Below, piece by piece: positions 187 through 52,696 of a stretch of 64,000 nt of DNA. The notes under the pieces are model-generated. The model worked only from the letters and a program-made list of their open reading frames with translations. It was not told the DNA's origin and did not search any database. Origin of the DNA: Mytilus edulis (lineage: Eukaryota); NCBI RefSeq assembly GCF_963676685.1, contig NC_092345.1, positions 99,014,001-99,078,000 on the forward strand. The letters run 5' to 3'. The position numbers and the translations under genes were made by a program. The first letter of the stretch is position 1, and every line of letters begins with the position of its first letter.

Positions 187-545
187 GTCGTACTAGTGGT
201 TCTGTACATACTATGCACGGCCATGACAATGAACATATATATAAAACGATGAGGACGAAGCTCATAAACTGTCAATGTACCGACATAAATTCAACTAGGT
301 TTTCAAAAAACCGTAACATTTATATTGGTATGTCATTTTCGTCGTCGTTGTCATCGTCGGTTAAAACAATAATTATTGGAGTACAAGTGTATGGATCTCT
401 ATGAAACTGTACCACAAGGTTCCATACTACTAAAGGAAGGTTAATATTAATTCGGAAGGTTATCGTTCTAACTGTTTAGGAATTTGGGACCAAAACAAGA
501 TTTTTTTCGTTTCATAACAATAACTTGATGTGGACAAATATATGA

Positions 546-696
546 ATCTCTCCTGACGATACATAATCAGACTTCTCTCTTCTCTCCTGACGATACATAA
601 TTAGACTTCTCTCCTGACGATACATAATCCGACTTCTCTCCTGACGATACATAATTAGACTTCTCTCCTGACAATACATAATCAGACATCTCTCCT
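546..696. repeat. 27-bp tandem repeat (left flank of LINE insertion)
   Basis: Same 27-bp unit, about 5 copies. Confidence 0.9.
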
Positions 697-3600
697 ATAA
701 TAATAATAATAATAATATCTTTATTTAGAGAGAGTAACTCATTTGGATTACACCAATTTTCAATAAGGCTCTCTTAATACAATAATAATTACATTACAAA
801 TAAACAATGCATCAATAATAATAAATTAAATAAAGATTATGTACAATTTAAAATACAATAAACAATTATGATATGGCATTACAGTAAAAATATGATGGTA
901 ATGTTAAAAGTACATAGATTTGTATTTATGTTTAAATTCGGATACTGTATTTGATTTTTTTTATTGAATTAGGAAGAGCATTCCACACTTTTGGTCCATT
1001 GTACGAGAAACTAGACTTATACAACTCTGTATTTGGTTTTGGAATAATAAAATTATCTGAGGATGAAAATCTCGTATTATATTTTTGGTTTGCAGAAGCT
1101 GATACAATAAGACTGGACATATATTCTGGAGCTAAGCCATGTTTTGCCTTATACATTAGTAATGATTTGTGATAAAGTATTCTTTGTGTGATTGGCACAA
1201 TGTTACATTCGTGAAATAATTCTCTTGAAGGTTTGGTGTAATCATGTTCGTCTAAAATTATTCTTGCTGCCCTTTTTTGCAGTTTTAGTAAACTATCTAA
1301 TAGAAAGTTATTACAGTTTCCCCATATTGAACAACAATAATCTAAGTGAGGTAAAACGTAAGCGTTATAGTACATTTGTCTAGCTTTATGATTTAGATAT
1401 TTCTTTATCCTTTTTAGTAAAGCTAAAGAAGAGTTAACTTTTTTGATTATATAATCAATATGAGAAGACCAAGATAGAGATGCATCAATAAAAACACCTA
1501 GAACTTTTTCACATGTACTTTCTATAATTTGTTGTCCATTTAAAGCAAGATTAATGTTTTCATTTGATGTAACGGAAAGCTTTTGTTTAGATCCAATGCA
1601 TATAGCTTTCGTTTTAGATACATTTACAGCCATCTTATTGTCATCACACCAGCGAAAAATATCTTGTAAAACCGTATTAAGTTTTTGACTGATGCAACTT
1701 TTGTTTTGTCCAATGACTGATATGGTGCTATCATCAGCAAATAAATCGGTGTTATGATTAGGATTAGACAAAGGAAGATCATTAATAAAAATTAAAAACA
1801 ACACCGGTCCTAATACGGGTCCTTGAGGTACACCCGTTTTTTGTTTTTGTACGTCTGAAAATGTATTTGAAATAGATACTTTCTGATATCTGTCAGCCAA
1901 ATATGATGTAAACCAACGTAATGAAGTATAAGCTAATTTGTATTTGTTTAATTTTTGAATAAGCAGTTCATGATTGAGAAGATCAAAGGCTTTTGCTAGA
2001 TCTAGAAATACTGCTCCAACAAGATCGCCATCATCAATGGCTTTAAGCCATTTATCTATTAAAGCTGTTAAAGCAGTTTGACAAGAATGGTTTGCACGAA
2101 AGCCTGACTGCATTCTATACAATAACTTGTATTTATTAAGATATTTTACTAAGTGTGTTTTCACATGTTTTTCAAGGATTTTAGAAATGAGTGGTAAAAT
2201 TACAATTGGTCTATAATTAAAAACATCCTGTTTTGAGCCTTTGTTCTTATAAACTGGTATGACTTTTGCCAGTTTAAATGAGGATGGAAAAATACATGTT
2301 TTGATACTCAAATTAAAAATATGACAAAGTGGTAGTGAAATAGCATGAGAAGACATCTTTAAAAATTTTGCACTTATGGTATCAAGGCCTGTTGCTTTTG
2401 ATTCATCTAGTGCTTTTAGTTGTAAACACACAAAATCATTACTCATAAGTGGTATAGAAAAATACACGTCATCTGGTACATGACCCGATATAAAATCACC
2501 AAGTTTGTTAAAACAGCTACTAGAATTGTCGATGTTTTGATCTATATTAAGATTATCTGTGATATTTGTGAAATAAGCATTAAAAACATCAGCAATGCCT
2601 TTTGGTTCTAAAATTTCCTTTTTGTTACAATCACTTATGATTTTTATACTGGTATGATTGTCGGTACCGCTGACAGTATGTAGGTGCTTCCATAATTTAC
2701 TGCTGTTGTTCTTTTTTTGTTCTATGATATTGGTATAATAATTTTGTTTAGAGTTTTCGATGAGATATTTGACTTTATTTCTCCAAAGTCTATAACTATA
2801 CATATCTTTTTTCTTATGATAAAAATCACGTTTTCTCATGCTATCTAGAATTTCATCATCCATCCACTCATTTTGATACAAACGTTTTACTCTCTTTTTA
2901 ATGAGTGGAGCATGATGATTTAATACTTTAGTAAAAATATTCAAAAAAGACAACAGTGCTTCTTCGGGGTCATCAATTTCTAATACACAATTAAATGAAC
3001 ACTGTGATATGTCATTGACAAAATCATTTTCATTAAAATGTTTAGTAGATCTGAACGTAATATATTCATGAATTTTCTTTTTCGATTTTAACCCTCTTTT
3101 GTGAGAAATGCATACTGGATAATGGTCACTGATAGAATACTTCGGAACAGATATAAAATGAATATTATGTGGTTCATTGCTATAAATATGGTCTACCAAA
3201 GAGGAAGATGTTTGTGTGACTCGAGTAGGAACTGAGACTATTTGAGACAAGTTAAAAATGTTTTTTAAATGTGACCATTTAGCTGGAATCTTTCTCGACG
3301 ACAAATTAATATTAAAGTCACCCAAAATAATCATTTCCTTATCTTCAATATCGACATTTGTTAACATTAATTCAAATTTTGTAACCCACTCTGCATTACT
3401 TTTTGGTGGTCTATAAATGTTACCAATTAATATAGGTTTTTGATGAACAAAAATAATTTCGATCCACATTGATTCTATATCATCATTTTCCAAATCATGT
3501 CGTCTTATTGTGGTTAACATGTTAGAAATATAAATTAAAAACCCACCGCCAGATTTTCCAATTCTGTCTTTTCTGTTTGTATCATAACCCTTAATATCTA

Positions 3601-4039: not shown

Positions 4040-5356
4040 AATCAGACTTCTCTCATAACGTTACATAATCCGACTTTATCCGTGACGATACATAATCAGA
4101 CTTCTCTCCTGACGATACATAATCAGACTTCTCTCATAACGTTACATAATCAGACTTCTCTCCTGACAATATATAATCAGACTTCTCTCCTGACGATACA
4201 TAATCAGATATTTCTCCTGACGATACATAATCAGACTTCTCTCCTGACGATAAGTAACCAGACTTCTTTCCTGACGATACGTGATCAGACATCTCTCCTG
4301 ACGATACATAATCAGACTTCTCTCCTGACGATACGTAGTCAGACATATCTCCTGACGATACGTAATGAGACTTCTCTCCTGACGATACGTAATCAGACTT
4401 CTCTCCTGACGATACATAATCAGACTTCTCTCCTGACGATACATAATCAGACTTCTCTCCTGACGATACGTAGTCAGACATATCTCCTGACGATACGTAA
4501 TGAGACTTCTCTCCTGACGATACGTAATCAGACTTCTCTCCTGACGATACGTAGTCAGACATATCTCCTGACGATACGTAATGAGACTTCTCTCCTGACG
4601 ATACGTAATCAGACTTTTCTCCTGACGATACGTAATCAGACTTCTCTCCTGACGATACATTATCAGACCTCATTCTATAGACGATACATTATCAGACCTC
4701 ATCCTATAGACGATACATTATCAGACCTCATCCTATAGACGATACATTATCAGACCTCATTCTAAAGACGATACATTATCAGACCTCATCCTATAGACGA
4801 TACATTATCAGACCTCATCCTATAGACGATACATTGTCAGACCTCATCCTATAGACGATACATTATCAGACCTCATTCTAAAGACGATACATTATCAGAC
4901 CTCATCCTATAGACGATACATTATCAGATCTCATCCTATAGACGATACATTATCAGATCTCATCCTATAGACGATACATTATCAGACCTCATCCTATAGA
5001 CGATACATTATCAGACCTCATCCTATAGACGATACATTATCAGATCTCATCCTATAGACGATACATTATCAGATCTCATCCTATAGACGATACATAATCA
5101 GACTACTCTCCTGATGATACATTATCAGACCTCATTCTATAGACGATACATTATCAGACCTCATTCTATAGACGATACATTATCAGACCTCATCCTATAG
5201 ACGATACATTATCAGACCTCATTCTATAGACGATACATTATCAGACCGATACATTATCAGACCTCATCCTATAGACGATACATTATCAGACCTCATCCTA
5301 TAGACGATACATTATCAGACCTCATCCTATAGACGATACACTATCAGACCTCATTA
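3959..5356. repeat. 27-bp array (to about 4660) followed by 29-bp array
   Basis: Direct reading; produces 9-aa-periodic spurious ORFs. Confidence 0.97.
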
Positions 5357-10475: not shown

Positions 10476-13317
10476 AGGAATAAACACCAATAAAATTATT
10501 TGATTTGATTTGATTTGATTTATTTGATATCACAATTATCGTCTGCATTGTCTATAGATTTCCCGCCAAAGATATATATGTTGGGATTATTTTTCTTTTA
10601 TTAAAAAGTTTTTAATGCATGTAAATTTTGCAATCTAAACATAAATGTTCTTAATCAATAAAATCTGTCTTTGAGAAATTCGAGACATACTCTTTAACTT
10701 TTTAATATAATAATTGTTTTTAGCATTTGGTTTCTTCATTAAAACATTATTAAAGGTACTAAACATTGAACTGTTGAAGTGATGTCATACCTTCAGAGTA
10801 TAAGAAACATTACGTCTCTCGATGACTGACATCTAGATAAATAACATGCAATTTCAAGATATATTTCTATGTGAAAATATAATTTTAGTGGAAACAATTT
10901 TGGTATCACATGTTTATCCATGGTAAAAGCATATGCTACAGAACAAATTGGAATTACATAGGACTAGTATCGAAGTAGTACACATGAGAATCCAATCTTT
11001 AATGGTAGAATTTTGAACATCTAACGCCACGTGTCTAGCGCTTAGGATAATGATAACTACACCAAGTTCGTGATTGTATTGTATTATATTTATTATTCAT
11101 TAGTTTAATTCTAATTCTATATCGTACTCAACTGAATATGTTGGTAAATAAAATGTGTGAACTTATCAATACCTTATTACAAAACAAATCTGACATAATG
11201 CACTTGTGAAACTGACAAAAACTTTCTTTAATTTCTTTTTAACTGGTTTATCTTTCTCAACATTTTCTAGTATTTTGTTTATGGTCTTTTCTTGAAAAAG
11301 CAACGTTTCGAACTTTTACGACATTTCCGAGACCGATGCGGAGTCAATGATATTATCACCAAGAACACAGACTGTTTATGAATAATGTTGTTTGAAATAT
11401 TATTCTTCGATAAATATTTATCACTTTGAAATTCAACAATCTATCAGCCTTAATTTTGATTCCAATACAGAGCATAATTCTTAATAATTTTTTTGCAAGG
11501 GATTGGTTTTAACTCATGATCGGTACTTCCTCACTTTGTTGCCCTTAAATCACGAACTGTAAATGCATCGTGTCTATATAAGTTGCTGGACTCTTTAAGA
11601 GTGTCGAGAATCGTCTTTCATATGATTGCTGTCTGGCTGCACTGCAGAGCAACATTACCCCTCCCCCCAAGAAAAAAACAATAGTCGACAAAACATGTCA
11701 TGTTACTTGTCTACAAGAACTTCAACAAAGTTTTAAACTAAGTCACTAGGTTTTATTTATGTCATAAGCAAACACGTTTTCTTTTTGAAAATGTACGATC
11801 TTCTGTAATAGGGAAACATTTAATAATAAAGCTTCACTAATGCATAACCACGGTAAACCAGGTAAAATGTAACCTGGAAGAAAGCTTTTATTTTTGACCA
11901 GCGAATTAGGTCTTATTGAGTAAATTACAAACATAGTATAACATAGACGTATAACGTTAGTTATGATTATCCGTCAAAACATTTCTCATCACGACTGAAT
12001 GGACAGACCAAGAAGGCGCCACATCTATCAATCCTAGAAATGATCAACACGAAAATTTAATCCCATCAATGTCATTTGTTAATTATTCTGATATGATACA
12101 TATTAATAATTAACATAACCCGTTTCTGGCATCACCGTGAACATGGTGGTAAACGGAAATGTACTATTGCTATGTCTGTTTTGACACAAACTGGGGCGTT
12201 GTTACATGTGGCGTATAAATATGTTCCATGTTTATAGCCTGTTGGTCAATTTAACAATGTATATACATGGTTGAAGTTAACAGAACCATTCACGTTTTCG
12301 TTGTTGTTAGATATAAAGAAAACAAAACATTACTTACATAAGGACCGTGACTGAGTGTGACTGAAACAATACGATCGTAAATAGAACATAGACAGCAACA
12401 AAGAAAAATCAAGAAATATATAAAGTAAATAATTCCAAATATTTTAGAATCTTCCAAAGAACTAGCATATGGTATTTTTTTACACGGTTCTAAAGATATG
12501 AAGGGATTGATAAAAGTTTGAAACATTACTCGCAATATTAAATGTTTTTTTAACCACAAATACTTTTTATCAGAGGGACTCAAAAATATTAACCTTGTCT
12601 GCAGATTCGTTCACTCTTCAAATCATAGATTGGATGTTGAGCAACTATTGGTCGATTGATTTTCTAGTAAATGCTAATTTTGTTATTTTGATATTAATTA
12701 CAATTTAGTTTTCATTTACTTTAGAGTTCGTAGAGCTCTTACCAACCTTCATCAGGAACGTTATGAGCACCCCCCCCCCCCCTTTCCGCCCCAAAATAAA
12801 ATAAACAAATAATCAAAAGCATAATAACAAACAAATAAAATAAGTTTATTTGCATTTGTTTATAAGTTTTATAATTTGTCTGCATTTCTTTGCACCTGTC
12901 CAAACCAGGAATCAGATGTTAAGCAAATAAGTTGGGACTTCGGAGTCAGTGAAAGGATTAAGACTAAATTGAGGTTTAATACAGTTTTTAGACTACTTTT
13001 TGATACAAAGTTAATTGTGAATAATTTTGTTGTTTCTTTGTTAATTTTTAAAATTGAAAGGTTGGTATCGTAGTTTTTAGTAAAGCCTCCAAATTGGAGA
13101 TATGTTTAAGTAAATTAAAAGATTGATATTGGAGCATCTCAGATTCTGTGAAAACAGATACGAACAGATATTTTATAACCCAAACAATGTACGTATCCGA
13201 AATTTTTGTTTGAATTGATTGCTTTATCCTTTCTAATTATATTTGTTTTTTACCGGCATATGCATTCCCATTCCAGAGGACCTGAAAATATATACGGTTT
13301 TGGTTTGGTTTGCATTG

Positions 13318-16984: not shown

Positions 16985-17320
16985 ATATCCAGTAAGAGGG
17001 AGGGTTGGGAGTTCACAAACATGTTAAACATGTTCAAACACACAATATGCGCAATGCGCATTTCCTAAGTCAGAAGGCTTCAATTCAGCAGTTGTCATAC
17101 TAAGAAATTGTATCTCTTTTGCAAACGTCAGGCCGTTAGTTTTCTCGTTTGAATTGTTTTACATTGTTATATCGGGGTCTTTTATAGCTGACAATGCGGT
17201 ATGAGCTTTGCTCGTTGTTGAAGGCCGTACGGTGACCTATAGTTGTTATTGTATGTGTCATTTTGGTCTCTTGTTGACAGTTGTCTCATTGGCAATCATA
17301 CCACATCTTCTTTTTTATAT
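16985..17320 (+). mobile_element. Short non-autonomous retroelement related to family B, with decayed twister-like head
   Basis: gggagggttg...aaacatgtt...tcctaagtcag, then ttgaaggccgtacggtgacc and the agttgtctcattggca...ccacatctt end. Confidence 0.7.
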
Positions 17321-25720: not shown

Positions 25721-26819
25721 TACAGAAAACAGTTACTGTAGTATATATAATGACCGTCCAGTACGGAATGTGTTTTAACAAAATAAAATTAATTACGAAA
25801 AAAATATAAAAAAATTACAATCTCATAAATAATTACTTCAGTAAGGTTTTAACTCCCTCAGGCTAATTTGACATATTTGGCCATTGTGGACCTTTTTTGG
25901 TATAATAGCTATTCAACTGCATGTTTTTATTCTTGTACATCATTGGCTTTCAAATACTTGGCTTTGAGAATGCAAGGCCCGTCCGAACAACTTATCTGTT
26001 TCAAGTCATTCAGTATCTCAATAACGTCCTTGTATAAGACACGTTGTATAAAAGTAATCTTTTTTGGAAAGGCTATTGATCATATCCAAAAGTTAGCAAA
26101 CAGGTCTCAAAGAAAGCAATTTTGTGGTCTTACAGATTTTCCTTTAATGCAAGTTAAATGGTTTACGACAAATATGCAAGATAAAATTCAAATACAAATA
26201 ATCCACATAGCACTAGTAACTGATATATGTCAAGACTAATATTATTAGTTACATATATATATATAGTGTGCTAGTGACCTAATACGGTATAAATGGGGTC
26301 AGTAAATTCCATATGGAATATAAAGGGACGTAACTCCACTATAACCGTGTATGAAATAAGCCCCGCCTCCCTACTAATCTAATATCAAATATACACGGTC
26401 TTCACGCGGACGCTTTTAACCAATCACATTCCTAGAAATGTATAGGAGGTAAGATAAATACACATCTTTAGGATGTTATTTGTTATATTTGATTTGCTTC
26501 GTGTTTTTCTAATCAAGGGACCAAATTGAATATAGCCTTTTACCACACTGACTTTTGCACACTTGTAAAAACTTATCCAAGATATCAGGCTTATAAGTTG
26601 GTTCGCGAAACCTCTATTTTGTCTCTTCGATGGCACTCGAATCAAAGTATTTAAAAGGTAGTTGAATCAAACATGCAGTGTGGGTGTTTCATGTATTGAT
26701 GGTTTGTGAAATACTTCGTAATGTCTGAGAGTTAATGAGACACATTCATCTATCCAATATTGCACGATGCGTAATGACTTTAAATAATCAATATATTTTG
26801 TTAGGAGTACGTATATTTT

Positions 26820-27202
26820 ATCGTATGTTTTTCTTTGTTGTGATGTTATGCTATTGTTTCAGAAAAAGGGAGAAGGTTTGGATCCATTAAAACGTTTAAT
26901 CCCGCTGCAAATGTTTGCACCTGTCCTAAGTCAGGAATCTGATGTACAGTAGTTGTCGTTTGTTTATGTAATATATACGTGTTTCTCGTTTCTCGTTTTG
27001 TTTATATAGATTAGACCGTTGGTTTTCCCGTTTGAATGGTTTTACACTAGTAATTTTGGGGCCCTTTATAGCTTGTTGTTCGGTGTGAGCCAAAGCTCCG
27101 TGTTGAAGGCCGTACTTTAACCTATAATGGTTTACTTTTTAAATTGTTATTTGTATGGAGAGTTGTCTCATTGGCACTCACACCACATCTTCCTATATCT
27201 AT
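26820..27202 (+). mobile_element. Family B short non-autonomous retroelement, longest copy
   Basis: Homologous to 7503-7794, 47930-48265 and 57248-57519; contains twister and junction modules. Confidence 0.8.
26859..26942 (+). ncRNA. Predicted type-P5 twister ribozyme (family B)
   Basis: tcaga..GGGA-G-A-AGG..TAA-TCCC-GC-tgcaaa/tttgca-CCTG-TCCT-AAGT-CAGG..tctga; stems covary with the copy at 35709. Confidence 0.75.
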
Positions 27203-27404
27203 TTTAAGACAGAGCATTTCACCTGTCGAGCATGAACTTACAACCTTCCTCGAGTCCCCCCTCCTAATTGTTCGAGTGTGTTCTGTTGAACCTTATATTT
27301 TTTGTAACGGGTATTAGGAACTGCTGTTATGTTAAGTGTGTTTAGTTAACGCTGTGCAATATCCTTGAATTTGAGTATACTATATTGACTATAAAGAATT
27401 AGAA

Positions 27405-28930: not shown

Positions 28931-30772
28931 TTTGTTTAAGGTAATCATATTGTACTATGGGGAAGACTTCACACGTATAATGTATTTGTGTCTCATTCAA
29001 TTGCTTAGATTTAGCAAATACAATATGTTTAAAATTTAAACTAAATTAGTTGATATCTGTAACTAGTTTACAAGAAATTGCTCTTTGAAAGGGAAAAGTA
29101 AAATCACAAAAATAATGAACTCGAATGAAAATTCAAAACTGAATGTCCCTATTCAAATCAAATGGAAAACAACTGTCATATCTCGGACTTGGTACAGGCA
29201 TTTTCAAATGTAGAAAATGGTGGATTAAACCTGGTTTTGTAGCACTTGTACGGTTTGAGGGATTTAAAAATTCAATTTGATTCCTTCTGAGAAAATTGGA
29301 ATACTTAATAGTATGAATCAATTATTACGTGTTGTTTACAGAGAGGAGTTATGCCCCTAAAGAAAGGCATATTGAAATCAGATCAGGTTTGTCATATGCA
29401 CAGACCATGTGGAATTCAAAATATCTCATGGTGTGGTACTTTTATTTGTTTTTTAATGTAAACATTACGTGACGCGCCGATACAGCGCCACATGAATTTA
29501 TGTTTGCAAGTGAGCTCTAGTGGTTTGTTTTGTAAAAAAATGCATAAGAAAGATAAACTCCCAAGCGGATGCATTGTTGACATATTTAAGGTATTCATGT
29601 GAATAGAATTAATATTTTTCAAGCACCATCTTATTAACAAGTATAAGTTATTAGTATGTTGTTAATTGTTTCGATTCATCTCAAGTGTCCCCACTTACTG
29701 ACAAGTAGTTAAGTCAGACAAAACTCTTTACAACACAAATAGGCAATGTTTAGGTTTCAAAGCGCCCGGATGTCACTATCAAGCCGCATTTAGACGTTTC
29801 AACTTGAAAAGTCTCCTTTTCAAATAAAAAAAAATGGACCAACACGATCAAACAATTGGACTAAGATTTTTTTTCTGAATCAGGAAAATTAAACACGAAT
29901 ATCATAAAATTTTATGGTAGATTTTTACAACGGATTTTTTTAACATAAGGTCAAAACATTTCAAGACAACTACGTCACTAACTTAAATAATACACGATCA
30001 GCAAATATTTCTTTGTGTTTTTTTATTCATCTTATTACCTGATAACATTGTGGCAGACGACAACTAGCTTCGACGCCAACTATTTAGTGCCTTCAAGTGA
30101 AAAAGTAAAAAATATCGATACGATCAACTATTTTATGCGTTTCATTGAATTTCTGTCGAATTTTAGGTTTAATATTCGGTCTAGGGATAATTGAAATCAG
30201 ATAGTCATCTAAAATGTTTTAATGTAAGGTAACTCGTGGTTGACAGTCATATGATATTGTGGGATATTAAAATCCAAAATTTCATAAAATCAAATTTAAA
30301 GAGATGCCCTTATTGATAGGGAATTTAATTTGAAAATATTTGTAATTGAAATATTCATTTATAATCTTATTTTAAGACTTAACTATAACAAAACATCCTG
30401 TTGGTTAACCTATGTTTCATAGCACTTACCTCAGAGTTACAGAACTTATCTAGAGCTTTTACAATCTTGCAGAGCTACAATGGCAACATTGATACAGATT
30501 TTTTTTAAGTTGTAAATTGGCTTTGAATAATAGATCAATAATTTTTTTCATTTTTTTTTTGGTTATTTGTTTTTGTACCGAACTGACAAGGAAAGTTCAT
30601 TTTAAATGTTTTTTACAGTTTGTTCTTATGCTGTGTTGCTACATGACTGTCCAGATGCCTTCCCAAGCGATGAAGTTTCAATTTAGTACATGTACGTAGT
30701 TGTTGATGATGGTATGCTTTTATTCCTCTTTTTTTTTAACTTGTTTTTTTTTCTATCTATTTTATTGAAATA

Positions 30773-32284: not shown

Positions 32285-32369
32285 TCAAATTAGACTTTGT
32301 TCAAAACACTTTATGTCTTCTTCGTTGAAGTATTTTAGAAACAAATGTCTATACTGAATGTAGTCTATA
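32285..32369 (-). pseudogene. Detached 3' end of ankyrin/SOCS-box paralogue 1
   Basis: Translates IDYIQYRHLFLKYFNEEDIKCFEQSLI*, matching paralogue 2 IDFIQYRHLVLKYFNEEDIQSFEHSLI*. Confidence 0.92.
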
Positions 32370-32382
32370 CCAAAAAACAAAT

Positions 32383-35300
32383 ATGAAGCTTAGAAATGGA
32401 AAAATATTAAATACTAAACTCGTTCAAAGGGTATCTACACGTCTCAATCTTCAGAATCGCTTATCTAAAAATACTACAATAGCTAACGTTTTTAACAATA
32501 AAAATCGTGGTTACCCTTCTATCGATAAGTGTCATGCCAAAAAATGACTTACGTGTCCCCGTCTTTCCACCAACAATACAGTAAGGTCCACATTTAATGG
32601 TCGCACATTTTCTCTAAATTTTGAAACTGATATTACTTGAAAAACAAACAGTATTATTTATTTACTCACATGAAACAAACCGGGATGCGGTATTCAGTAC
32701 GTAGGTGAAACTGGGCGATATTTATCTAAACGCACGCAAGAACACCTGTATCGTTTTAAAAGACCCAATAAATTCAAAAGTATCATTTATCAACATCTTA
32801 AGAAGCACAGTCATCCTATTAAATATTTAACAGTTCAACCTTTAGAAGTAGTAAATAAGCAGCCTGGTGAATCTCATTCCAAGTTTGTACGATCACGAAA
32901 AATAAATGAATTAAATTGGATTAAAAAATTACAGACAGTCTACCCTCTCGGTCTTAATGATAATATCATGGGAATTGGCAATATATCAAGAACCGATTCT
33001 GTTAACATTTTGGATATAGTTTCTAAAACTGTTCGTAAAAATCGTTCTCATGGACGCAGAAAAAATCGCAATCAAAGAAAATTTCGGACCAACCATACAA
33101 ATATTTCGGACCTAATTTCCATTTCAAAAAACAACGGCAGACATTATCTGTTAACCAAGCTTTGTTCTTTACCTATAAATAAATAAAATAAAATTTTAGA
33201 GGATTGCAACACAATTTCATATTACAGTCCTAAGTATGAAATTGTCCAAATTATAATGGCATATTGTTATTCTAAACTGTTTCCAAAAATTGATCGCCCT
33301 GAAGATCATAAAAAACATTTTATTAAAATAAAGTATGTCAATAAAGGTTTTGATTTTGTAAATATTGCCGGTATTTTTAACGACCATTCTGTTAAAGACC
33401 AAATTCCTGGATATTTTGATAATACTGAACTCCCTCTCATTTGTTATATTTACAAGAAATCTACCCGAAAATATGTGTTTAATTATAGCCAATTGTGTAA
33501 AGATGTAAATATCACTGATAATACACCTATGTCGTGTAATTGCAGTAATTCAGAATACACCTATGGACCAATTTCCCATGTTATAACAGGAGACCTTAAC
33601 ATCGTTCGCGACCGAGAGTTAAAATCATTCCTCAGTAAAGGACCTAAATATCGTCCCCCGTCAACTATTAACTGGAATGAGTGTCGTAATATCATCAACG
33701 ACTCACTCCGCGCCTACTGTTTGAAATGGGTAAAACGGGAAAAAGCTGACAAAAAATCTTTGGACTCTTTTTTTAATTCAGTAATGAAGATAGTTGATAT
33801 TCGAATACAACATTTTAAAGAACATTTTACCCTCAACAAAAACTATAAAAACCCTATTTCGCGTATCAAAAATAAACTAACAGAACTAGCCAAGGAATTT
33901 GTTTTTGTCCCGGCTGATAAAGCTGCTAATAATATCATTATTGTTTGACGTAAATTTTATATAGAGGTTCTACAAAAGGAAATCACGAATTCACCAACAT
34001 TCCAACTGACTTCATTTTCAGAAAACGACATCTGTAACAAACATAAACTTTTAGCTACTTCTTTACAAGCAGAACCAAACACAATGAAAGTCCCAACTAT
34101 GTACTGGCTTCCGAAGCTGCACAAAAAACCTTACAAATATAGATTTATTTCATCTTCCAGCCATTGTTCAACTACTAAATTGTCTGTTTTACTTACTAGT
34201 ACACTTGGTACAATAAAAAACCTGATAATAAATTGTTCAAATAAGGCCTTTGAAAATAGTGGAATTAATTACTTTTGGAGTGTCAAAAACTCTTTGGAAG
34301 TACTTGATAAATTGCATGCATATATTGGTGATTTTGAATCTGTTCAAAGTTTTGATTTTTCTACCCTATATACCACTTTGCCTCATATTCTTATTAAGAA
34401 AAAATTCACATCCCTAATTAACTGGGCATTTAAAAAGTCGGAATGCGAGTACATATGTTCAAACTCTTTTAGATCATTTTTTAGTAGCAATAAACAAAAG
34501 AACTATGTCAATTGGACATGCTTTGATACTATTTATGCACTTGAATTTTTACTTGATAACATTTTTGTTCGCTTTGGAGATTCCGTATATCGTCAAGTTA
34601 TTGGAATTCCAATGGGGACTAACTGTGCACCACTTATTGCGGACCTGTTTTTTGTATTGTTATGAGTTACAATTTATGACTAAAATTAGCAAAGACCCAT
34701 CAAAACAACATTTGATACAAAAATTTAACAATACTTTTAGATATTTGGATGATATATTGGCTCTAAATAATGACGACTTCAGTATGTATACTAAAGAAAT
34801 TTGTCCTGTAGAACTTACTTTAAATAAAGCTAATGATAACAATGACCACTGCCCTTTCCTCGATCTTGATATCTATATCATAAACGGGAAGCTTAATACA
34901 AAAATTTATGATAAAAGAGATGATTTTTCATTTCCTATTGTTAATTATCCATTTTTAGATGGTGACGTTCCCTTGTCACCATCTTATGGTGTTTATATAT
35001 CTCAACTTGTACGATTCGCTCGTGTATGTAACAATGTATTAGATTTTAGCGAGAGAAATTTATGTATTACTGAAAAATTATTACACCAGGGTTTTCGATA
35101 TCACAAACTGGTCAAAACATTTACTAAATTTTATCACCGGTATAAGGAAATAATTCGTAAATATAACTCAACATGCAGACATCTTATACGTTCAGGTATT
35201 TCACATCCAAAATTTTATGGAAATATTCTTTATAAAGCACAAAAATGTCAGTATTCTCCTCAGAAACTAACAAAACCTTTAAATAGACTTATTAAAAGGG

Positions 35301-35392
35301 GATATAGTTACGATACTGTTGTCAGGTCATTAAAGATTGCATATTTTGGCTTTAACATTGATTCACTGATAGGGTCTTTGCATCGGAACTAA
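32383..35392 (+). CDS. GIY-YIG endonuclease + RT, about 1002 aa, predicted selenoprotein with 4 UGA; this copy has one TAA (33184) and a +1 T (34648-34653)
   Basis: From ATG 32383: IIYLLT..QYVGET..KR..EH..E..W..YPLGLND; PADKAANN, YWLPKLHK, FDFSTLYT, GIPMGTNCAP, RYLDD; TGA at 32545, 32638, 32671, 33946. Confidence 0.88.
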
Positions 35393-35447
35393 ACACATTT
35401 ATTTCTAAAAAAAACAGTTGTTGGCATGACAGGGGTTATGTTCTTCT

Positions 35448-35512
35448 CATATATTTTATGATAGTATGATACTAAACCCCTAACGGGAGGGATTGTACCT
35501 GATATTCATATG
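35448..35512 (+). promoter_or_regulatory. SECIS element (type II)
   Basis: ATGAT (35458), helix gtatgat/attgtac, apical AAA (35474), mini-stem ccc/ggg, TGAT (35500); lower helix catat/atatg. Confidence 0.85.
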
Positions 35513-35708
35513 ATGAAGACATAATCTTTCAATCAGTTTAATTGAGGTCTGGAGCTGGCATGTCAGTTAACTGCTAGTAGTCTGTTGTTATTTATGTATT
35601 ATTGTCATTTTATTTATTTTCTTTTGTTACATCTTTTGACATCAGACTCGGACTTCTCTTGAACTGAATTTTAATGTGCGTATTGTTATTCTTTTACTTT
35701 TCTACATT

Positions 35709-35799
35709 GGCTAGAGGTATAGGGGGAGGGTTGAGATCTCATAAACATGTTTAACCCCGCCGCAATTTTGCGCCTGTCCCAAGTCAGGAGCCTCTGGCC
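35709..35799 (+). ncRNA. Predicted type-P5 twister ribozyme
   Basis: P5 ggctagagg/cctctggcc; P2 GGGG/CCCC; G-A-GGG; UAA; P3 cgca/tgcg; P4 cctg/cagg around TCCCAAGT. Confidence 0.78.
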
Positions 35800-36030
35800 T
35801 TTGTTAGTCTTGTATGATTTTAATTTTTAGTTTCTTGTGTATAATTCGGAGTTTAGTATGACGTCCATTATCACTGTACTATTATGCATATTTTAGGGGC
35901 CAGCTGAAGGACACCTACGGGTGCGGGAATTCTCGCTACATTGAAGACCCATTGGTTGCCTTCGGCTGTTGTTTGCTCTATGGTCGGGTGGTTGTCGCTT
36001 TGACATATTCACCATTTCCTTTCTCAATTT

Positions 36031-36977
36031 TATAATACGCGGAGGAAAACCGCCATGTTTGATGTAGTTGATAAAAATTTGAAAACTAAGACCTAAATGA
36101 CTTCTCAAGCGACGTCTGCACAAATCGGCTAATGTTCGTGGTTCGTAAAGCACACTGTGAATTTTTGCCAATATTTCTTCATCTACGGTATAAACATCAT
36201 TTGATAAAAGGAATCGTTTATCTTCATGGCAAAAATCATCAAATGTCTCTAAAAGAAGCATGATGAGGTCTTTTATACTCGGTTTTACATGACTTAAAAC
36301 ATACACATGAATGCTTCGCGCCAGGAGAAATTGTAAAAGAGAAGTGTCACCTGCCGGCATGCTTTTAAGGGCGTTACATGAAAGCAACAAATAAAACACC
36401 TTCGCTCTGACATTAATTTCCAAAAGTCTATATAAAAAGAAATCCTCGACTAACGGTAGTGCCCCATTCATCAACAGTAGGGCCATGACATCGTATCTGC
36501 CGGTCTTGAGAGCTACTAAAAAGGGCGTCTCGTTTAACATTACTCTATCCTGAGTGTCGCACTGGTTTGCATCTGAATGTGTAAAATCGCTATGAGGTTT
36601 ATTAACATCATGTCGTTTATTGATCAGTGTTGCTACATTTTGAATCAAATGTTCATTTTCAATGATAATTATAGAACTGATTGCAGACCAGGCATTTGTG
36701 GAGGACCCGAGAGCAACAAACTCTTTTCTCTGAAGAAAATCCACTATCTCCCTCGATTCGAGTACTTCAGCCCATCTTAGTGCAGTATAACCTTTGTATC
36801 TCAACTTACGTAATTCGGATTGTAATTCTGGCTCAACATCTACTCCTGTAATGATTGCCTTTACCACGTTTAAATTGTGATTAAAAATTGCTTCTATCAG
36901 CCATTTGCAAATTTGATTTTTATTCCATCCGTATTTGATATATTCCTTGATGACAGTATGACAAAGCTTACTGTCTC
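36031..36977 (-). pseudogene. Paralogue 1 last exon (ankyrin-like repeat + SOCS box), interrupted by the retroelement
   Basis: Acceptor ttctaattcacag|GA; ETPFLVALKTGRYDVMALLLMNGA; PRTLADLCRRRLRSHLG...FPPRII; colinear with 50397-51451. Confidence 0.85.
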
Positions 36978-37331: not shown

Positions 37332-37880
37332 AGCCTCGGTCACACCTTACCGGATAGCACGAACGGACGCCTAACGGATGAAAATAAAAGTAGTCCGTTG
37401 ACAAAATTGTTATCCGTTGGAAGTCCGTTGATGCACTGAACGAATAAAACGGACACACAACGGGTATGCAACGTACGTGAAACGGAACCGTAACGGACAG
37501 AACGGATGTCAAACGTACATCCAACGGACGTTCATCATCCGTTTTATCCGTTATACGTCCGGTAGAAGTCCGTTTCATATTCGTTCAACATCCGTTTTAT
37601 CCGTTAGACGTCCGTCAGAAGTCCGTTGGTGAATTTATCTGCCAGACCTCCAACGGATGTATAACGGACACGTAACGGATACAAAACGGAAACGAAACGG
37701 ACGAGTACCGTACAAAACGAACGCCTACCGGACGTTCAACGGACATTTCATCCGTTGGACGTCTGTTCAAAGTTTTGAACATGCTCAAAATTTTCCACCG
37801 GACAAAACAGACGTCGACGTATAAAACGTACGCTAAACGGACATGCAACGGATATGGACGGACTTCTAACGGATAAGATA
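37332..37880 (+). mobile_element. Truncated Harbinger-like non-autonomous element
   Basis: TAA|agcctcggtcacac terminus resembles the TIR at 41160; dense aacgga/tccgtt internal repeats; no right TIR. Confidence 0.6.
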
Positions 37881-37929
37881 ACAGAAAGTGAGAAAGGAAA
37901 ACACAACAAAAAAGTGAGAGAAATAAATT

Positions 37930-44322: not shown

Positions 44323-44968
44323 ATAAAATTGAGAATGGAAATGGGGAATGTGTCAAAGAGACAACAACCCGACCAAATAAAAAACAACAGCAGAGGGTCA
44401 CCAACAGGTCTTCAATGTAGCGAGAAATTCCCGCACCCGGAGGCGTCCTTCAGCTGGCCCCTAAACAAATATATACTAGTCCAGTGATAATGAACGCCAT
44501 ACTAATTTCCAAATTGTACACAAGAAACTAAAATTAAAATAATACAAGACTAACAAAGGCCAGAGGCTCCTGACTTGGGACAGGCGCAAAAATGCGGCGG
44601 GGTTAAACATGTTTGTGAGATCTCAACCCCCCCCCCCCCCCCCCCTATACCTCTAACCAATGTAGTAAAGTAAACGCATAACAATACGCACATTAAAATT
44701 CAGTTCAAGAGAAATCCGAGTCTGATGTCAGAAGATGTAACCAAAGAAAATAAACAAAATGACAATAATACATAAATAACAACAGACTACTAGCAGTTAA
44801 CTGACATGCCAGCTCCAAACTTCAATTAAACTGACTGAAAGATTATGATTTCATCATATGAACATCAGGCACAATCCGTCCCGTTAGGGGTTTAGTATCA
44901 TACCATCATAACATATATGAGAAGAACATAACCCGTGTCATGCCAACAACTGTTTTTAGAATAAATGT
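44323..44968 (-). mobile_element. Solo 3' UTR module of the Naiad-type family
   Basis: Colinear reverse-complement match to 35395-36033; no coding sequence. Confidence 0.92.
44855..44919 (-). promoter_or_regulatory. SECIS element, second copy
   Basis: ATGAT-ggtatgat-act-AAA-cccctaacggg-acgg-attgtgcc-TGAT. Confidence 0.78.
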
Positions 44969-47365: not shown

Positions 47366-47929
47366 TGATGTTTTTAACGCGTTAAATATGCTTTAAACGC
47401 GTGAAAGTTGCATTAAACGCGTAAAAGATACATTTAACGCGTTAAAAATGTTTGTCACGCGTTAAAGTTGGATTTTTATACGCGGTAACCTTCTTTTAAC
47501 GCGTTAAACCCTCTTTTATCACGTCTCACGTATCAATCTGTGCCAAAAGTAAGAGGATGACTATTTGATATCCATTGGGGAAGGAGGATGTTATTCTGTT
47601 GTTATTCTTTATTTTTACTACTTACTAAGTCGGGTTTTTTCTTTTTCCGCGCAATCATTCATTTTCGTCATTTTTTACCTCTAAATACTGCGTTGTTCTG
47701 TAATATGGCATGTACGGAGAGCAGATTATTTATCCCCTCCCCCTAAAATGGGCGCTATTATTAGTGCCCTACCTGTAAAGCTGAAATAATCTGTCTCTCT
47801 GTCCGTCCGTTTTTCTGCCCGTTATCAGTCCTGAATTTTGTTCAAGGTTATGATTGTCTTTCTGATATTGTTTGACTGTAACCCCATTGTTTTATTTTGT
47901 ATTTACATTGAGTCATAGATCAAACTTAT

Positions 47930-48265
47930 TCGTGAAGTGATATGTCATTTGATTGAGTTAAGCCATTTCAGTTGATGTTTTAAAGTGTGTCTTTCTACGT
48001 TGTGATAATACACTATTGTTTCAAGTTGGATTAAGGTTGGTGCCTATTAAAACGTATAAACCCGCTGCATTTGTTTGCACCTGTCCTAAGTCAGGTACCT
48101 GGTACCGTGGTTGTCGTTTGTTGATGTGCTTCATAAGTGTTTCTCATTTTTTTTATATAGATTAGACGTTGGCTTTTCTGTTTGAATGGTTTCACCCTAA
48201 TCTTTTTTTGGAACCCTTTATACATTGCTGATCAGTGTGAGCCAAGGTTACACGTTGAAGGCTGT
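47930..48265 (+). mobile_element. Decayed family B element
   Basis: cccgctgca..tgcacctgtcctaagtcagg and gtgtgagccaagg..gttgaaggc shared with 26820-27202. Confidence 0.7.
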
Positions 48266-49007
48266 AATTCCCGAGTGTGCTAAAATGTTATAGTCTTCAT
48301 TGGTGTCATCTTCATGTGTTTGTGGTGGTATGTTTTCATTTGCAGCACTTGTTTTTGATAGTAAATCGCGTTAAGCGATGCATTCAGAGTCCATGTTGTT
48401 CAAGATAACTGTTACCATTAGGACATTAGAACTTGTATGGTTTTTAGTTAACAAACAGTGTTTGCTATTTTGAAATCTGGTTAGTTAAAGAGAATGGTTT
48501 AATCGTGAGAGGAAGACGCCATGTAATATCTTCATTATTCTCCTCGTCTGTAATGTCCAGGACACCACGATACTCCAAAAAAAAAAATACGAACAGATCA
48601 TGATAGTATTTTGTAAGTAGCATTATTCCATAACTCCATCCAACGATGTTTTATCGCGTTAAACGATGTTTTGTCGCGTTAAACGATGTTTTATCGCGTT
48701 AAATGATGTTTTAACGCGTTAAAGTAATGTATCGTAGCAACATAATTGTATTGAATTTAACGCGTAAATGTGATTCATTATGACACATGTGGCCAGTGCG
48801 ACGGGTATTTTATCGCGATAAACGTATTTTTTCACCTAAGGGTTAAATCCCATGCAAACTTGATAATTGTTAAGTTTAAAGCGTTAAATATATTGATTTC
48901 TTTACGCGTTCAAATCTTGTTTTAACGCGTTAAAACTGTATTCATCGCGTTAAATGTTAAGTTAACGCGTAACTTTATCGGGTTTTTTACATGATCGGCC
49001 TTTCATA

Positions 49008-49560: not shown

Positions 49561-49939
49561 TATTCAATATACATAAATAAAAAAAATGTAGTAAGGTATA
49601 CCGTTAAAATTGAGAAAGGAAATACTTTTTAAAAAACATTTTTTCTGTTGCTGTTCATAGTACGAAGAAGTGATTGTCATATCAAACACTTATCAAAGCT
49701 GGTATATAGACATTAAATAACAAAAAAACATTACAAATTGTATCAACAAGTCAAATTAACAATAAAGTACGATTACTGACAGCTAGTTAAAAGCCAAAAA
49801 CAATTAATGATAATAAAAAAAAATCAGAGACAAAAATCAACTAAACATATCCCAGAGATTTAGTATTTTAACGTCATGAACAGTCAAAGAAGACGACGTG
49901 TGCATTGATAACTATAAATGTATCGACAGGCAGTGAGAT

Positions 49940-50311
49940 AGTTACGAGTTTCCTCGCTTTTAGTACAATGTAACCGTAAAATTTAGGATGTGAAATACCG
50001 TATTTAATCAGTTTTCTACGGGTTCATCCAAATCTACTAATCAAATCTTGGTATCTATGAAAGAATTAAGTAAAAGTTTGAAGTTATTTATGATAACGAA
50101 ATCTCTGACATAATAATTTACCAGTGATGCATGGATAACGTTCGTTAAAATAAATGAAATCACTACACACATTGGCATAACGAACGAGTAGGGCTATATT
50201 AACACCATATATAGGAGCAAAAGGCACATCGCCGTCAAAAAAAGGAAAATTAACAATATTAGGGAATGAAGAATCGTCTCTTTTGTCGTAAATTTGTACT
50301 TCGTCGAACAT
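49940..50311 (-). mobile_element. Decayed Naiad-type RT C-terminal fragment
   Basis: IYDKRDDSSFPNIVNFPFFDGDVP..YGV..RFRYHK aligns to the 34505-35392 frame. Confidence 0.8.
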
Positions 50312-51451: not shown

Positions 51452-52696
51452 CTGTAAAATAAAACACATTGTTAAATACGATCCAACCTTTAATTCTGTA
51501 ACTGAGTTTTACAAACAAAGTTAAGCAGTGGCATGAATAATCGTGATGTCAGTTATAATATGATAATTTAAATATAAACATAACAAGGGTATCACTATAA
51601 CTTCCGGTAACTAGACGTTCAGTTAGCTATCCAACCAGGTTTAATCCATCATTTTCTACATAAGGAAATGCCTGTACCAAGTCGGGAATATGGCAGTTGT
51701 TTTCCATTTGTTTGATGTGTTTGAGATTTTGATTTTGCTATTTGATAAAGGGCTTTCCGTCTTAAATTTTCCTTATAGTTCGGTATTTTTGTTTTCTTAC
51801 TTTTTACTGCACCTGATTTCAAATAAATCTGTGAAGTTTTTTTTTCTTTTTAGATATAATGTTTAACAGGCATTTGCTATGAGTAACGAAAAATTCGTCT
51901 AATTCGGTTACATTTGAACAAAAACTGTAGGGGTGTGTGCGTTCACACGCTTTCCCAGAAAATGATAATGTAAAATTCCTATTTACATTGGGAAACCAAG
52001 GTAGACAATCAGATAACATATAAAACGGTGATTATATTATCTCAAATAAAAGACTTCATGTCAATGACGGGAAAAAAAGTCAACATTGCTAAACAATTAA
52101 AACTAAAAAAATATTGAAATGATGTTACAATGTTTGGACTACTCTCCAGGTAAACATGATTAACATAATGCGTGATTTACATATATCCTTATAATACCCC
52201 GAAATGACCTTGTTTAACAGACAAATGTTTTACTGGGATATTCTACTCTTAAACGGAATTTTTCATATTACGACAATTGCCATTAGTGGAGCAGTAATTG
52301 CTTGGTACCCCTTATGGAGGAACACACAAGCTGTTTTTAAAAGTGTTTATGGTTCGTGTTGCATTTGTTAAAAAATGCTTCGTTTTTATTTCGGATGATT
52401 TATTTTCAATGTCCGTGCTTGTTATATATGCAGAATACTCTTTAAATTTGTCCTCAAGATTGCCGGGGCTTTTATTTTAAATTTCCCATTCGATAATTAG
52501 GTTGAATGGTGTATACAAATATCATCATCGTTCGATATCAAAAACACATGCTAAAAAATCGTCCGTTTGATTGTGGAGGTCAAAATAGGGCGATTAAATC
52601 CAAAGACGATCGTTGAAATCTAGATATCTTTGTTTTTTTTTGTCGTTGGGTTGTTAGAGATTTAGGTTTCATACTTTAAATAAAGATACATGTTAC

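Follow-up and report, generated by a model that had tools for sequence, protein, structure and literature searches.

The structure described here is closest to the type-P5 twister ribozyme (Rfam RF02684, clan CL00120), with which it shares its strand order, P2, P4, T1, T2, a conserved GA, a U|AA site and the L4 loop. Although essential in the twister consensus, helix P1 is dispensable in vitro, and the review PMC5408937 gives P1-less twisters a near wild-type rate and cautions that an altered P2 length may disturb the site; in PMC8501958, cleavage by a P1-less twister is termed "inefficient". Eckert 2023 reports no twister permutations that are new. Twisters are also found in retrotransposons, namely the Schistosoma Perere-3 T-variants, in which P1 is likewise weak or missing; these belong to an APE/RT LINE, at whose 5' end, beside the target duplication, the insertion site supplies P1 (Liu 2021, PMC8501958).

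Palindromic helices are known from the hammerheads of Penelope-like elements, in which helix III is reduced and palindromic, and whose cleavage is weak and confined to dimers (Cervera and de la Pena 2014, PMC4209133; Lunse 2017 via PMC6765202), as part of a proposed route that leads through circles to tandem insertions (PMC4209133; PMC6765202). Unlike other Penelope-like elements, the Naiads, for which section 6 of Craig 2021 (PMC8557442) gives GIY-YIG, CxC, DKA and RT as diagnostic traits, are a host clade reported without hammerheads. The statements of that paper on ribozymes have the canonical hammerhead absent from Naiads, and consider that hammerheads may merely parasitise Penelope-like elements. 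The selenoprotein Naiads that it lists are from clams and spiders only. Short, abundant bivalve ribozyme repeats tied to Penelope-like elements have also been described, as non-LTR retrozymes (PMC7761336; bioRxiv 10.64898/2026.07.22.740005).

Positions 26813-27202 (forward strand) of the 64,000-nt stretch of Mytilus edulis DNA analyzed here (the window) are, judging from their sequence, the truncated tail of an autonomous Naiad-type Penelope-like element of what we call family B. These 390 nt are 97.9% identical to positions 4112-4501 of the metagenome contig L064, that is, to its last 390 nt, in the 3' UTR of a Naiad ORF (473-3484) that is open for 1003 codons once TGA is read through. The 3' end is common to other copies: among 30 family-B copies, most stop ~305 nt beyond the predicted cut site discussed below, with 5' ends spread from 19 to >1500 nt ahead of it, and family-A copies likewise have a fixed 3' end and variable 5' ends. 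The window copy is a lone 5'-truncated insertion. The 7 bases TATTTTA occur at both of its junctions (26813-26819 and 27200-27206), possibly as a target duplication or through microhomology. When extended, the longest family-B copy contains a GIY-YIG region, a motif at the CxC position, DKA, RT, and five TGA codons at cysteine positions. Read by eye, both L031 and L064 combine an N-terminal GIY-YIG, zinc-finger-like cysteine motifs and a C-terminal RT in one ORF, with U-D-C and DKAANN as their CxC and DKA motifs; Pfam returned RVT_1 alone for the Naiad ORF, as a weak match (E 0.0096), and nothing for its N-terminal part. The further Naiad traits of 5' truncation, partial tandems and inverted truncated copies are all present here. 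Families A and B are sister lineages with RTs that are 65-68% identical, and the RT tree of this analysis is built from its own loci only.

Family A is represented in the window by a near-full element at 32367-36033 (forward strand), with a GIY-YIG region and RT in translation. It carries TGA at cysteine motifs (32545, 32638, 32671 and 33946), its frame is broken by one premature stop (near 33184) and one frameshift (near 34650), and it is 99.7% identical to its metagenome counterpart L068, in which the frame is open. Right behind its stop codon, at 35448-35512 (forward strand), lies a SECIS-like hairpin (Rfam SECIS_1, 30.9 bits, E 0.042, against a gathering score of 35), and a SECIS_1 match that is also below gathering (E 0.0041) lies ~135 nt past the stop in L031. 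The domain order of both families is that of the selenoprotein Naiads Naiad_Scon, Naiad_Mmer, Naiad_Sdum and Naiad_Smim, which likewise show 5' truncation, partial tandems, TGA at cysteine motifs and a SECIS past the stop (Craig 2021, PMC8557442). The mussel consensus families there are not marked as selenoproteins in the records we compared, whereas families A and B have 4 and 5 in-frame TGA codons at cysteine motifs, respectively (five in L064; also L067-L069). Together with the SECIS-like hairpin, these codons suggest that both families are selenoprotein-type Naiads, with predicted selenocysteine insertion. The main text of Craig 2021 (PMC8557442) makes no mention of a twister, a fold that both families carry.

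In the family-B tail, the type-P5 twister fold spans 26859-26942 (forward strand) and is closed by P5 (26859-26863 with 26938-26942). Based on the Rfam alignment, 26868-26876 contains the 3' strand of P2, the conserved GA (26872-26873) and the 3' strand of T1, and the fold and Rfam together place the 5' strand of P2, T2, the P3 hairpin and P4 with its L4 loop in 26900-26935. P2 has 4 bp (26868-26871/26900-26903), as does P4 (26920-26923/26932-26935), and the tertiary pairs are T1 (26874-26876/26925-26927) and T2 (26904-26905/26930-26931, one of them G-U). The predicted cleavage site falls between 26897 and 26898, where U|AA (26897|26898-26899) is placed by the Rfam alignment, and the G of the GA is likely the general base, by analogy with the catalytic role described in PMC5408937. 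The permuted strand order, with ends in P5, is found both here and in the family-A twister at 35709-35799 (forward strand), which lies in the 3' UTR of the near-full element, 320 nt behind its RT. The minimum-energy fold of the 26859 copy recovers P5, P2, P3 and P4 with a z of only -1.47, and that of the 35709 copy has a z of -3.04. In small searches, Rfam Twister-P5 scored them at 21.8 and 23.4 bits (E 0.011 and 0.0027), respectively, both short of the gathering score of 37.6 bits; an Rfam scan of the whole window matched neither copy, and a family scan of the mussel's own genome gave 0 matches, with the controls equally silent.

The elements named in the preliminary description of this DNA are all where it had placed them, and its compensatory changes relative to the family-A copy (35722-35788) are borne out by one C-G to U-A replacement in each of P2, T1 and P3. 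The pair change in P3 holds, whereas the stem there has 5 bp, closed by a loop of 4 nt, rather than the proposed 6 bp, and P5 does differ, but as another, shorter helix (5 bp compared to 10 in the 35709 copy). That description also took the covariation within the window as strong evidence for selection on the fold. We agree about the selection, but the two families are sister lineages and thus represent one lineage split, such that three pair changes in the window are weak evidence alone. Of the decayed copies it listed, the one at 48033-48099 is a profile match, 16995-17080 is a damaged twister nearer the 35709 family, and 12880-12919 is only a P3/P4 remnant. It overlooked the P1 region of the 26859 copy, where no stem is possible and two palindromes are present.

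Much stronger evidence for selection comes from a comparison across Naiads. An RT search of metagenomes gave 154 loci, of which the best 80 were taken (39-100% identity) and searched with a sequence-only profile seeded with both window copies. The profile matched 42 of these best 80 loci and 0 reversed sequences, with 44 of 45 matches on the RT strand, and 37 of the 44 loci (again from the best 80 of 154) with at least 500 nt behind the RT match carry the twister motif. From 76 profile matches we retained 24 below 90% identity, removed one decayed window copy and L127, and added four loci, some of which are close to others, to give a set of 26 families. With hand-set anchors, the P2 pairs are kept in 24-26 and the P4 pairs in 22-26 of the 26 families, T2 in 25, and T1 in 26 for the inner pairs and 19 for the outer pair; as for the core bases, GA and NAA are each kept in 25/26, U in 26/26 and AA in 24/26. 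In 17/26 families P2 consists of 3 bp and a bulge, a subtype that our first strict descriptor overlooked. The two P2 subtypes are one column out of register in sequence-only alignments, and MAFFT scoring was therefore limited to 2 P2 pairs and the hand-set anchors used separately. In the plain MAFFT alignment, 93% of 286 cells are paired over 11 pairs, compared to 30-49% in slid controls, and the covariation score is 0.447 compared to 0.136 in shuffles (reached by 0/500). Six pairs in P2, T1, T2 and P4 change on both sides, a number also reached by 109/500 shuffles.

These shuffle controls disregard relatedness, and we therefore counted changes on the RT tree. The T1 pair that differs between the window copies changed on both sides along the same branch at least 2 times, T2 did so at least 3 times, and one P4 pair in 4 of 4 cases. 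A twister fold is thus conserved in Naiad 3' UTRs, and its selection is supported by the 26 families far more than by the window. By eye, the twister is also present in six of the Craig 2021 (PMC8557442) consensus records, from the part of the 54 that was viewed (Naiad-1_Movir, Naiad_Mphi, two that correspond by record order to Naiad-4_Chem and Naiad_Bpla, plus two in the clam part), and absent from the three Acropora consensus tails Naiad_Amil, Aacu and Anas. The 3' ends of those three contain the words GAAA and CTGATGA with their order reversed, and may represent a permuted hammerhead. Rfam, when run on 18 Naiad loci, returned 7 weak SECIS matches, one weak twister-P1 and no P5 match. In the 1.37-Gb mussel genome there are 1652 exact core matches for the 26859 family and 7592 for the 35709 family, compared to 0 for reversed controls. 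In 400 kb of random sequence from the same genome (L143-L182) there are 27 profile matches of several subtypes, and the genome may thus hold tens of thousands of twister-like tails.

The Naiad fold departs from RF02684, apart from its sub-gathering scores, in a T2 that is often G-U, A-U or CC/GG, in the 3-bp bulged P2 of the 17 families, and in having two palindromes instead of a P1 stem. In the window copy, palindrome 1 (TGGATCCA, 26879-26886, forward strand) occupies the P1 position with a predicted self-duplex of -13.2 kcal/mol, and palindrome 2 (AAACGTTT, 26890-26897, forward strand, -5.9 kcal/mol) has as its last base the one preceding the predicted cut. The direct P1 pair, which would join the base following T1 to the one preceding the site, is absent in 25/26 families. 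Two perfect palindromes, each with at least 6 paired bases, are found in 20/26, where shuffles lead one to expect 1.9; the remaining families mostly have palindromes closing with G-U or one mismatch, and G-U closure, as seen in several imperfect palindromes, is a trait of RNA. Over the families, predicted self-duplexes range from -11 to -23 kcal/mol for the 5' half and from -4 to -16 kcal/mol for the other, and single-strand folds from 0 to -2.6 kcal/mol. An intramolecular P1 between the two palindromes was considered and rejected (0.5 to -4.0 kcal/mol). The center of palindrome 1 is AT in 10 families, CG in 8, GC in 4, TA in 2 and GT in 2, with 11 changes on the tree, and a hand count of the first 100 of 1724 family-B copies gave AT 62, TA 33, GC 1 and 4 non-palindromic. 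Since a hairpin would leave its loop free to vary, a center that changes and stays self-complementary is indicative of a duplex of two strands, and the replacement of P1 by two palindromes suggests that copies pair with each other. In 15/26 families, palindrome 2 extends up to the cut or stops a single base short of this, which ties it to the active site.

Taking these observations together, we hold with moderate confidence that the missing P1 of this type-P5 twister fold, with its predicted cut at 26897/26898 in a Naiad 3' UTR, is likely supplied when its palindromes pair with the palindromes of another copy. On balance, pairing-assisted cleavage of transcripts with two tails appears to be its most likely role. 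Naiads occur in partial tandems, and thus a transcript that begins in an upstream tail, crosses the ORF and reaches the tail behind it would have two twisters. The two would pair and release a unit-length RNA, which could then be circularized by ligation and copied starting at the fixed 3' end, in the manner suggested for hammerheads in other Penelope-like elements. The tandem layout is observed directly: twisters flank the ORF on both sides in L184 (from the mussel's own genome, the upstream copy being partial) and L078, a twister stands ahead of the ORF in L079, L089, L101 and L114, and in L064 and L069 the sequence opens with a tail fused to the 5' end, although assembly collapse may account for the tandems on metagenome contigs. 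We also note an identical 4.75-kb tandem unit in L183 (G000:C1:6233000-6242900), in which a twister is accompanied by two distinct, truncated pieces of Naiad RT.

Dimerization is the weak link of this scheme, as P1-less twisters cut well in vitro (PMC5408937), and a single copy may thus cut alone. The alternative is then an active twister that cleaves as a single molecule, the palindromes serving to join two element RNAs, or both ends of one, for ligation, RNP assembly or template switching. The near wild-type rate of P1-less twisters (PMC5408937) and a remaining core that is complete within one strand are both in line with this reading; however, palindrome 2 reaches the cut, or stops one base short of it, in the 15 families noted above, and unrestrained cutting would cost every transcript its 3' UTR, whereas the site is spanned in most insertions. 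We therefore regard single-molecule cleavage as unlikely, although it is the strongest of the alternatives. That most genomic copies are intact across the site implies templates that were either uncut or religated.

A twister-derived fold that no longer cuts, and that acts instead as a structural signal for the element RT or for RNA stability, appears less probable still. It would account for the absence of P1, the P2 shortened in 17/26 families and the lack of a cleavage footprint. The preliminary description had anticipated RNAs with ends at 26897/26898, and none were seen in the RNA reads: in one RNA run (X24, of which ~6% was read, for families A and B) there is no pile-up of ends at the predicted site, the reads being from both strands and mostly from embedded copies that run on into other sequence, and the X11 contigs added nothing further on ends at the site. 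Similarly, 5' ends of genomic copies fall between P4 and the site in 6 and 12 per ~100 copies of the two families, close to the background of 3.2 and 10.8, with 0 of these 18 within 2 nt of the site (for each family, 30 unselected and 20 picked copies were drawn from the first 100 of a single contig, and all but 2 family-B copies were checked). Short copies tend instead to terminate within the 5' arm of P3, at 7-15 nt from P4 (5 per ~100 in family A and 11 in family B; L214-L288, G000:C1; the total number is near background), which also favors this reading. A fold without catalysis is, however, at odds with the conservation of the bases that occupy the catalytic G and A positions, in 25/26 families and down to 39% RT identity.

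It is very improbable that the palindromes are DNA sites, nicked or bound by the GIY-YIG endonuclease, with the twister part alone acting as RNA. Palindromes of 6-10 bp in DNA are typically protein sites, but the palindrome sequence is free to vary between families and within family B, with self-complementarity kept, several palindromes close with G-U, and the ends of the element are ~300 nt away.

The reading in the preliminary description, that these short, abundant copies are non-autonomous, retrozyme-like units moving as small RNAs, linear or circular, with the twister at their boundaries, is hardly credible, as their 3' ends are fixed and shared, their 5' ends scattered, the long copies continuous with a Naiad ORF, the 35709 copy part of a near-full sister element, and a monomer between two sites at a 150-400 nt period absent among the fetched loci. 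Non-LTR retrozymes are hammerhead-based non-coding units (PMC7761336; bioRxiv 10.64898/2026.07.22.740005), whereas the Naiad copies are truncated tails of a coding element, and non-coding units of 150-400 nt bounded by ribozymes and without an ORF of their own are not what we find here.

For pairing-assisted cleavage, the minimal hammerheads in the pseudo-LTRs that Penelope-like elements carry are a close parallel: like the Naiad twister, they are near the 3' end, on the sense strand and doubled in tandems, and have a key helix reduced to a palindrome, as is P1 here (PMC4209133). The Naiad twister belongs to an unrelated ribozyme class and has two palindromes rather than one (PMC4209133), and it differs from the Perere-3 twisters in being of type P5, within the 3' UTR, and in copies that do not end at the site. 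A broader proposal, which we put forward tentatively and with slightly less than even confidence, is that one Naiad branch, reaching from hydrozoans and box jellyfish to bivalves, carries a natural dimer-dependent twister, in which P1 is replaced by side-by-side duplexes between the palindromes of two RNA copies, and which arose independently of the dimeric Penelope-like hammerheads as a switch that cuts only two-tail transcripts. If true, this would be a second ribozyme class in the same place, with a helix again made palindromic, and would argue for copy-pairing self-cleavage as a part of Penelope-like replication. It would also extend the twister architecture beyond the Rfam thresholds and add ~ten thousand more ribozyme-like loci in one genome, and a cheap in vitro test is available for cleavage by copy pairing.

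A P5 twister from Clytia is reportedly among the examples of Roth et al. 2014, and may itself be a Naiad copy. We did not find this example in Felletti 2016. Nor did the literature searched contain a link between Naiads and twisters, although such sequences could appear, with no mention of the element, in the supplements of Roth 2014 and Lunse 2017. The element family is thus already known, and what is new is the P1 arrangement of a conserved twister fold.

The window contains several further Naiad and twister pieces. A truncated family-A copy on the reverse strand (44323-44968) holds both a SECIS-like hairpin (44855-44919) and a twister with an expanded G run (44565-44634). The twister at 48033-48099 mentioned above is damaged and belongs to a diverged family-B-related tail at 47917-48269 (forward strand). 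On the same strand, the twister at 16995-17080 has a duplicated palindrome 2 and is missed by the profile at E 1e-4, and the remnant at 12880-12919 consists of the P3 arm and P4. A third twister subtype (3-bp P2, ACC/GGT T1) is present as its 3' half, identified by the profile, at 51631-51689 (forward strand) and again at 29183-29238 (reverse strand). At 49704-50295 (reverse strand) lies a fragment that covers RT and 3' UTR and comes from a Naiad related to family B (77-86% identical to L064). Finally, short TCCGTT-rich repeats without relation to the twister are clustered on both strands at 37400-37900.
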